Shown here piece by piece: positions 30,314 to 49,372 of a DNA stretch of 51,874 bases; position 1 is the stretch's first letter, and every line of letters begins with the position of its first letter. The stretch comes from Patescibacteria group bacterium (lineage in GTDB: Bacteria > Patescibacteriota > Minisyncoccia > Moranbacterales > UBA1568). The stretch spans positions 1-51,874 of the forward strand of contig JBBTWT010000019.1 in the NCBI GenBank assembly GCA_038078615.1. Direction: 5' to 3'. Under the pieces are notes generated by a model that did not search any database, was not told the origin of the DNA, and was given only the letters and a program-made list of their open reading frames with translations. The position numbers and the translations under genes are program-made.

Positions 30314-30422
30314 ACATATATGATATCATACCTGCCTTGGCGGGACGGATTGAAAAAAGTTCATAAGCGTAGTTCGCGGGGTTTGTTGTTCGTAGCCGCT
30401 CAAAGTCTCGCGAACGAGCAAC

Positions 30423-30994
30423 AAAAAAACGGCCTTATAAGCCATTCATATCCCTTTTCTTCCCGACTTACCGCTAAACCCTAATAGCTAAATGCTGTTA
30501 AGAATGTTGGTGTCGGGCGTTACGACGCCCAATAATTAAATACTTGGCTGTAACGCCCGAACTTGCATGTGCCAACAGGTATGTCGGTTACGTAGCCTCG
30601 GGTGAGAAGGCATTTGTAATCCATTGAGCATTCCTGTATTTTGTGCTCATGCACCATCGCAGTTGGCCTAACGCTTCAACTACTTCTCCCTTCACCGTTC
30701 TCTGGCATTGAGCCTTTATTTTTTTGAAAGAACAATTTTTTGTTTCTTTTTGTTTTTCTCCTGGATTTTTTATTTTTCAGGAGGAAACATTTGTTTTTGT
30801 TTTGGGTCTCCGTGTTAGGACGGAGCGGCTTGGATACTTTGATCCAAACACTTGAACAGTGAAAGAGTCCCCCTTCACAATCAGGGGGAAATTGTGATTG
30901 GGAACTCTCCCACCGTTCAGGAAAACGTCCGCCGTCCGCCAACCGGCGGAGGAGGAAGAAGAAGGAAGCGATTGTCAAAGAAATTCTATCTAAC
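30423..30994 (-). ncRNA. Candidate large structured non-coding RNA (unassigned)
   Basis: Own promoter and terminator, no credible ORF, 5'/3' closing helix and multiple long stems with strand-specific G-U pairs. Confidence 0.55.
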
Positions 30995-31000
30995 AAACTC

Positions 31001-31029
31001 ATTATAGCAGAAAAAATGCCTTCGGTCAA
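31001..31029 (-). promoter_or_regulatory. Near-consensus sigma70 promoter
   Basis: TTGACC-17 nt-TATAAT with extended TG. Confidence 0.75.
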
Positions 31030-49272: not shown

Positions 49273-49372
49273 CAGTGTTGGTTACCCGCCCGACTGGACG
49301 ACGCCAGTCGTTCGGGCGGAGAGCGTCACATTGACATTGTGAAGGTCACTGGTTCAAATCCAGTATCACCCA
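49273..49372 (+). pseudogene. tRNA-Val(GAC) remnant with a hairpin inserted in the D-loop
   Basis: Intact anticodon arm TCACA-TTGACAT-TGTGA, T arm and 3' acceptor strand ATCACCC; no matching 5' strand upstream. Confidence 0.7.

Follow-up and report, generated by a model that had tools for sequence, protein, structure and literature searches.

A large structured RNA, very probably of a new family, in the order that holds Candidatus Moranbacteria

Bacterial RNAs of more than about 400 nt that combine an elaborate conserved structure with an unexplained role are very few, and the known RNAs of this kind have proved to be ribozymes, ribonucleoprotein cores or self-assembling RNA cages. OLE RNA lies within an operon and is found in anaerobic or extremophilic Firmicutes, together with genes for OLE-associated proteins. 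ROOL and GOLLD RNAs are often associated with phages or prophages. In the available part of PMC12286853, OLE RNA is described as a dimer held by loop-loop and other RNA-RNA bridges, and the kissing loops of ROOL and GOLLD, first seen by covariation, as bridges between copies in RNA-only cages. We analysed a stretch of 51,874 nt from a Patescibacteria group bacterium (contig JBBTWT010000019.1; hereafter the window, in which all coordinates are positions) and report an RNA locus at 30423-31029 on its minus strand. No catalogued RNA family matches this RNA, which therefore looks like a new cellular RNA; we estimate its length at about 570 nt in the window and at roughly 400-600 nt in relatives.

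We consider it very probable that the locus encodes a real, functional structured RNA of a new family. In a blind scan, 131 distinct homologues were aligned on a sequence-only profile and column pairs were ranked by mutual information with average product correction (APC), no structure being used. Almost all of the top pairs fell into stacked antiparallel runs, which were the helices P1, P2, P7 (two segments) and P10, a loop-loop contact and an alternative helix (ALT), all listed below. Pairs were counted in a second, independent alignment, made with MAFFT from 20 genus sequences and 17 from other families (37 in all), on which our model has 97 pairs in 19 helices. Standard pairs occupied 87.2% of the cells of this model, as against 76.9% in shuffled alignments (reached by 0 of 500) and 38-43% when the pairing partners were slid by 1-3 columns. 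Changes on both sides of a pair (double changes) were found in 71 of the 97 pairs, the shuffle mean being 46.5 (again reached by 0 of 500), and the covariation score was 0.314, compared with 0.163 in shuffles and 0.07-0.10 in the slid controls. At least ten helices carry compensatory changes, and the layout is multi-branched. The original prediction, made from the sequence letters, had been of a large structured RNA, unannotated so far and similar in size to the ornate RNAs; that claim is upheld by these double changes and the blind scan, and by the conservation across the order and the lack of an Rfam match described below.

Many pairs are G-U in most sequences and would be A-C mismatches on the opposite strand, which fits the minus strand as the transcribed one. 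The minus strand folds at -203.9 kcal/mol, compared with -146.0 ± 6.9 kcal/mol in dinucleotide shuffles (z = -8.3; 0 of 100 as good), and the plus strand of the same region gives z = -5.9. The elements of the structure are the following.

30916-30856, minus strand: P1, a long irregular hairpin (P1a 30916-30905/30867-30856; P1b 30903-30901/30873-30871; P1c 30896-30892/30880-30876)
30891-30881, minus strand: C-rich apex loop of P1, near-invariant outside the genus, varying in several genus members
30849-30843/30834-30828, minus strand: P2 hairpin, double changes in 7 of 7 pairs, with the top mutual-information pairs
30825-30808, minus strand: P3 hairpin, with loop bases 30819-30814 as the 5' half of the loop-loop contact
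30804-30790, minus strand: A-rich linker 1, its A positions near-invariant across the order
30783-30758, minus strand: P4 hairpin, variable; absent, short or expanded in other families
30757-30736, minus strand: A-rich linker 2, its A positions near-invariant
30733-30727/30703-30697, minus strand: P5, enclosing a small hairpin P5a; 96.8% paired, double changes in 0 of 7 pairs
30700-30691, minus strand: c2, a second copy of the P1a 5'-strand sequence, which pairs with 30863-30854 to give the ALT helix
30681-30661, minus strand: P6 hairpin, double changes in 5 of 5 pairs, with loop bases 30672-30667 as the 3' half of the loop-loop contact
30652-30645/30572-30565 (P7a) and 30637-30633/30579-30575 (P7b), minus strand: P7, a long-range helix enclosing P8 and P9, found by mutual information and covariation
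30622-30616/30591-30586, minus strand: P8, supported mainly within the genus; 71% paired over the 37 sequences
30611-30595, minus strand: P9 hairpin with a 9-nt loop (30607-30599), whose five-base C-rich core is present in 48 of 49 sequences inspected
30560-30550/30523-30513, minus strand: P10 hairpin with an inner stem P10b; 95.3% paired

P1 was predicted by RNAalifold in a 44-sequence alignment of the 5' domain, with double changes in 15 of its 22 pairs. It is the 20-bp stem that had been noticed earlier (30916-30901/30873-30856 in the present model), and its many G-U pairs and strong covariation confirm it. An 11-bp stem noticed at the same time is P10, where all 11 pairs show double changes. 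The TGTTGG/CCAACA extension then given to this stem is ambiguous: it is 83% paired with double changes in 3 of 6 pairs, but it competes with the better-supported P7 and, since it uses P7 bases, may be another competing pairing. Double changes were found in 6 of 7 pairs of P7a and in 5 of 5 of P7b, the latter 96.2% paired. The low column counts of P1b (53% paired) and P9 (66.9%) come from the placement of gaps in the alignment; sequences read directly show that the stems of P9 differ in sequence between clades and that its loop does not change.

The loops of P3 and P6 form a 6-bp contact across about 145 nt (93.4% paired, double changes in 5 of 6 pairs), a signal in which covariation cannot separate an intramolecular from an intermolecular contact; given the bridges of ROOL and GOLLD, it could equally be intermolecular. 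The strand 30863-30854 has two covarying partners, namely the 5' strand of P1a (30916-30905) and a near-duplicate of it about 160 nt downstream (30700-30691). The second pairing, the ALT helix, comprises 10 pairs, is 91.4% paired and has double changes in 5 of the 10. ALT and P1a exclude each other, and four bases of ALT also belong to the 3' strand of P5. In a clade with quite different sequence at both places, ALT remains a 14-bp duplex. The median duplex energies were -14.7 kcal/mol for P1a and -16.6 kcal/mol for ALT, against about -7 to -8 kcal/mol for shuffled partners, and both duplexes were at or below -10 kcal/mol in 104 of 109 sequences, 22 of the 131 having been dropped for gaps. A further contact of five pairs is possible between the P9 loop and the 5' strand of P10. 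It has modest support, with double changes in two pairs and no compensating change in three, and would at present be a lead only.

Two C-rich hairpin loops and the two A-rich linkers are near-constant. We considered pairing of the constant loops with 16S rRNA, RNase P RNA or transfer-messenger RNA (tmRNA), and rejected it because the duplex energies were chance-like (29-72 of 100 shuffled loops were as good). The best perfect matches of these loops were of 6-7 nt and differed in position between two 16S genes. Mimicry of the 16S 3' tail was set aside: the 16S ends of relatives are canonical, and by eye the loops resemble them in a few bases only.

Our analysis also indicated that the locus is non-coding. 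Its open reading frames (ORFs) are short or begin within the promoter. In the set of 131 homologues, the median length of the longest sense ORF is 53 codons, and 50 have a sense ORF of at least 60 codons; the start positions are scattered, which means that no reading frame is conserved across the set. The earlier judgement that the locus holds no credible ORF is therefore sound.

A search with Rfam 15 (4227 models, including OLE, ROOL, GOLLD, raiA, HEARO, 6S, signal recognition particle (SRP), RNase P, tmRNA and group I and II introns) gave no match in the region at the gathering threshold. The only matches at these thresholds were two tRNAs elsewhere in the window. With E up to 10 the region gave only 13 chance-level matches, the best of which had 22.9 bits against a cut-off of 49, and ARAGORN found no tRNA and no tmRNA in it. 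This agrees with the original prediction, which by eye had seen no signature of RNase P, tmRNA, SRP or group II introns. It had also proposed a comparison with Rfam and a homologue search across Patescibacteria; the former matched no family and the latter found homologues with compensatory changes. No match to the region was found in a phage collection. Our literature search found no paper that connects a large structured RNA with Patescibacteria or Moranbacteria; it did not cover supplementary motif lists, which could include this RNA.

An identity as RNase P RNA or tmRNA was rejected, since both are encoded elsewhere in the genome. The tmRNA is on contig 41 (104 bits), and the RNase P RNA is on contig 11 (32809-33187, minus strand), with a full-length match to the bacterial type-A model. 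The latter is unusually diverged, scoring 49.7 bits where the gathering score is 100. The second of the two tRNA matches in the window (49310-49364, plus strand) has 32 bits, just over the threshold, covers model positions 10-63 only and follows a normal tRNA at a distance of 85 nt; it may represent a tRNA that is truncated or unusual in form.

The following transcription signals and flanking parts were identified.

31029-31001, minus strand: sigma-70-type promoter, with a -35 element, a 17-nt spacer and an extended -10 element; 11 of 12 hexamer positions match
30994-30423, minus strand: predicted transcript of about 572 nt, its 5' end placed from the -10 position and its 3' end from the terminator T-run
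30982-30972, minus strand: 5'-leader motif, earlier called boxA-like, kept in the genus only
30512-30448, minus strand: 3' tail from P10 to the terminator, variable in homologue alignments
30447-30423, minus strand: intrinsic terminator, a hairpin plus T7, kept in homologue alignments

Promoter and terminator had both been recognised before, and both are supported by the relatives. The promoter columns are invariant in 37 of 37 aligned homologues, and this promoter consensus has only 13 sites in the entire 759-kb assembly; the hairpin and T-run of the terminator are kept in the alignments. The 5' leader contains a G+C-rich hairpin at about 30925-30950 on the minus strand, a variable insertion directly before P1, which is found in the window and, in differing forms, in some genus members, and is absent from others.

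Two other parts of the original prediction did not hold. One was a 13-nt helix closing the 5' and 3' ends (30954-30966/30451-30463), which is only 54% paired, with most rows gapped there; the slid control, in which the closing helix and the hexamer extension of P10 were taken together, gives 37-52%. Duplexes between leader and tail were no better than those with shuffled tails (median z -0.17 in the genus, n = 20, and -0.02 in the others, n = 104), and the pairing seen in the window's own sequence reflects a pyrimidine-rich leader facing a purine-rich tail. The other was the boxA-like motif. It is restricted to the genus, its 15 matches in the genome are close to the number calculated for chance, and in two relatives the 1.5 kb ahead of the 16S gene did not contain it. 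As a whole, then, the large RNA with its promoter and terminator is supported, while the closing helix and boxA are not, and the stem extension is unsupported in the unqualified form in which it was put.

The order that holds Candidatus Moranbacteria consists of ultra-small groundwater bacteria. BLAST with the region gave matches in 55 of 61 related genomes. Among these were 35 of the 36 further genus members and representatives of most other families in the order. Five of the six BLAST-negative genomes were scanned with a covariance model of the 5' domain, one being left out, and the RNA was found in three of the five; the other two had no match. The best BLAST pieces of the RNA within the genus span 360-550 nt at 77-89% identity, whereas the protein encoded upstream is only 34-60% identical. 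A sequence profile of the genus (nhmmer, E < 1e-5) matched 17 of 19 loci from other families nearly over the full length, promoter included.

A scan with a motif of 24 positions, taken from the apex of P1, covered bacteria and archaea at one genome per species and gave at least 119 loci. Where the sequence titles name a lineage, it is always Candidatus Moranbacteria/Moraniibacteriota, Parcubacteria or Patescibacteria, the other titles being generic or automated-pipeline labels. When the first 80 loci were compared with a profile of the whole RNA, 79 matched. In 108 of the 119 motif loci listed, the consensus promoter lies upstream and a T-run follows downstream; of the 11 loci that fail this, 7 are at contig ends. 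We further ran two independent covariance models, one with 133 positions for the 5' domain and one with 151 positions for the 3' domain, on 151 genomes drawn evenly from the class. Both matched the same six genomes, all in the window's own order, and neither matched any of the 145 genomes from other orders, under stricter Infernal filters that weak relatives could escape. In the samples searched, the RNA is by these matches specific to the order holding Candidatus Moranbacteria.

The RNA is single copy in the window's genome by BLAST. It stands in a fixed gene order, which runs from the polynucleotide phosphorylase gene (pnp) through the gene for a putative membrane protein and the RNA to yraN and a dksA-like gene. 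Among the 119 motif loci listed, of which 96 have at least 1.5 kb of upstream sequence, 108 have yraN downstream, 97 have the putative membrane protein upstream and 87 have pnp farther out on that side. Judged by its single copy, fixed gene order and lack of a phage match, the RNA gene is a vertically inherited chromosomal gene and not a mobile element.

The genes around the locus are all on the minus strand. Upstream are pnp and the gene for a protein of 392 aa, and downstream are genes for a YraN/UPF0102 protein, a DksA-like zinc-finger protein, signal peptidase II (lspA) and a ComM-type ATPase. The 392-aa protein has no Pfam family match and only a chance-level NCBIfam match; from its sequence it looks like a single-pass membrane protein. 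We considered it as a partner of the RNA and rejected it, as it has no family match and no sign of RNA binding in its sequence. The spacer between the RNA and yraN varies in length among relatives. In some genus members (L002, L004, L005, L009 and L019), the terminator is separated from yraN by an additional element of a few hundred bases with internal inverted repeats, to which a shorter stretch in the window (about 30314-30420) is related; it may be a small mobile or structured element. A -10-like element lies directly before the yraN start codon (about 30314-30330, minus strand) and is kept in most genus members. It abuts the start codon and leaves no space for a ribosome-binding site, which suggests that the yraN mRNA is leaderless.

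The reading that we propose is that of an independently transcribed, single-copy, order-specific gene for a large non-coding RNA, which would be made constitutively, act in trans and possibly be bistable or self-associating; taken as a whole, we hold this statement to be slightly more probable than its denial. The RNA would act in trans as a stable structural or scaffold RNA, in a ribonucleoprotein or an RNA-only assembly, and would not primarily be a leader of yraN. Its constant C-rich loops could be docking sites for a protein or another nucleic acid. It may toggle between two folds, or it may exchange the duplicated strand between copies. The latter is raised by cryo-electron microscopy (cryo-EM) of OLE, ROOL and GOLLD, whose covarying loop-loop contacts are, in the available part of PMC12286853, bridges between copies. 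To the mechanism itself, a trans-acting scaffold or a bistable RNA, we would give somewhat less than an even chance. A bolder version is possible but rather doubtful. By it, the RNA would be a new ornate RNA machine, with two global folds or with a swap of strand and kissing loops into an RNA-only multimer, possibly catalytic or scaffolding; its housekeeping role would have arisen within a single order of the candidate phyla radiation (CPR) and be found nowhere else.

Several observations weigh against the proposed reading. Transcription is predicted from the promoter and terminator sequences only. Of 21 sequencing runs listed, 20 of which contain at least part of the stretch, none is recorded as RNA. 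The RNA is always upstream of the same operon on the same strand, and two alternative pairings would also be expected of a regulatory leader. Its confinement to one order means that "housekeeping" is only read from its promoter and its ubiquity there. The fixed upstream neighbour, the putative membrane protein, belongs to no family. On the side of the structure, 94 of the 131 sequences of the blind scan were gathered through the P1-apex motif, which makes the constancy of the apex loop circular in those 94, and because related genomes are not independent samples, significance is overstated by the shuffle counts; kinship does not affect the slid controls or the number of distinct pair types in the same way. 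The MAFFT alignment gives scant or poor covariation for P5 and for P1 in its upper part.

The same alternative pairings and the same position would suit a giant cis-acting leader of the riboswitch or attenuator type, serving yraN, the dksA-like gene, lspA and comM, in which the pairings would decide between stop and read-through at 30447-30423. The mutually exclusive helices both covary, a further competing pairing adjoins P10, and the same-strand position upstream of yraN is fixed in 108 of the 119 loci listed. We nevertheless regard such a leader as unlikely. The competing strands (30916-30854 and 30700-30691) are at least 240 nt from the terminator hairpin and do not overlap it, and terminator and T-run are kept as a strong stop. 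The spacer to yraN is variable, with insertions of a few hundred bases in some genus members, and the -10-like element is conserved immediately ahead of the yraN start codon. A leader of about 570 nt would also be far larger than any known to us. The very long yraN leader, which the original prediction had kept as its second option, is thus less likely in view of the conserved terminator, the variable spacer with its insertions and the -10-like element of yraN.

Conserved single strands and a loop-loop contact could also be the active site of a large ribozyme, either self-processing or with another substrate. Natural RNAs of this size and complexity with known function are mostly ribozymes, and this one is large and multi-helical, has a tertiary contact and carries strongly conserved unpaired nucleotides. 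No catalytic Rfam family was matched, however, and the sequence has no sign of processing. Among other large ornate RNAs of like complexity, we know of none shown to be catalytic. The available part of PMC12286853 describes assemblies and not catalysis. On these grounds a ribozyme seems decidedly improbable.

An extremely diverged and enlarged 6S or SRP RNA has in its favour that these genomes appear to lack both: neither was detected in the window's genome, SRP RNA was undetected in 21 genomes of the genus, and promoter strength and ubiquity suit a housekeeping RNA. It is nonetheless very improbable, for there was no Rfam match up to E 10, the layout is multi-branched and not a single rod, and the closing helix between the ends is unsupported. 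For 6S RNA in particular, at least ten helices in a multi-branched layout and a 5'/3' closing helix that is not conserved led us to reject the identity.

For SRP, neither the small nor the large bacterial SRP RNA model matched in the region or in the window's own genome, and each matched 0 of 21 genomes of the genus. The SRP M domain was likewise found in 0 of 21 genus genomes. The SRP54-type GTPase domain, searched at E up to 1e-10, was found in none of the 151 genomes searched from the class and none of the 121 from the phylum, while 14 of 14 controls were positive. In genus genomes it gave only weak P-loop matches, and two that were inspected we take, from their sequence, to be Mur-type ligases. 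A tblastn search with E. coli Ffh had no match in the window's genome, nor in a complete Moraniibacteriota chromosome of 1.05 Mb, in which rplS and trmD were found; tblastn also missed rpsP, located otherwise, so negatives of this kind are not fully reliable for short proteins. No paper on the absence of SRP in Patescibacteria was found in the literature. In the available part of PMC10768705, the SRP genes share a locus-tag prefix with the other secretion genes of the host. Either the phylum is truly without SRP, or the searches miss it systematically. We rejected the RNA as an SRP RNA because no model matches, neither Ffh nor FtsY was found, and the lack of SRP, which in our samples extends over the phylum, does not track an RNA confined to one order.

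That the locus is no functional RNA at all, but a decayed mobile element, a missed protein gene or a set of DNA-level signals, is close to refuted, because against the sense ORFs of at least 60 codons in 50 of 131 homologues stand their scattered starts without a conserved frame, the compensatory changes that keep pairing, the single copy in fixed synteny and the lack of a phage match.

If the proposed reading is true, it adds a large ornate RNA from the CPR, a vast branch with hardly any cultured members and little-known cell biology. The candidate offers more than 100 homologues, a structure supported by covariation, a tertiary contact and built-in competing helices, and an in vitro transcript would suit chemical probing, mass photometry and cryo-EM without culturing the organism. 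The RNA is also a clean marker for the Moranbacteria order. Its value is that of a well-defined new object and not of a solved mechanism.

Compared with known systems, the RNA resembles riboswitch platforms and attenuators in that one strand has two mutually exclusive partners, both maintained in evolution. It differs from them in that the competing strands do not involve the terminator, no aptamer family is matched and yraN has its own promoter-like element. With 6S RNA it shares an own promoter and terminator and, as predicted here, constitutive and strong housekeeping expression; no 6S RNA was detected in the genome, and a neighbouring gene encodes a DksA-like RNA-polymerase-binding protein. 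However, it is about three times longer and multi-branched, whereas 6S RNA is a rod with a central bubble, and the 6S model does not match. Like ROOL and GOLLD it is a large ornate RNA, but it has no Rfam match to them and is chromosomal and syntenic, without a phage match. From OLE RNA it differs in having no match in sequence or structure, in belonging to another phylum, and in having its own promoter and terminator, whereas OLE is part of an operon. Six neighbouring ORFs were scanned and none was recognised as an OLE-associated protein, no dedicated search having been made. It is like OLE, on the other hand, in its size class of about 600 nt, its many covarying helices, its long conserved unpaired stretches and its single chromosomal copy.

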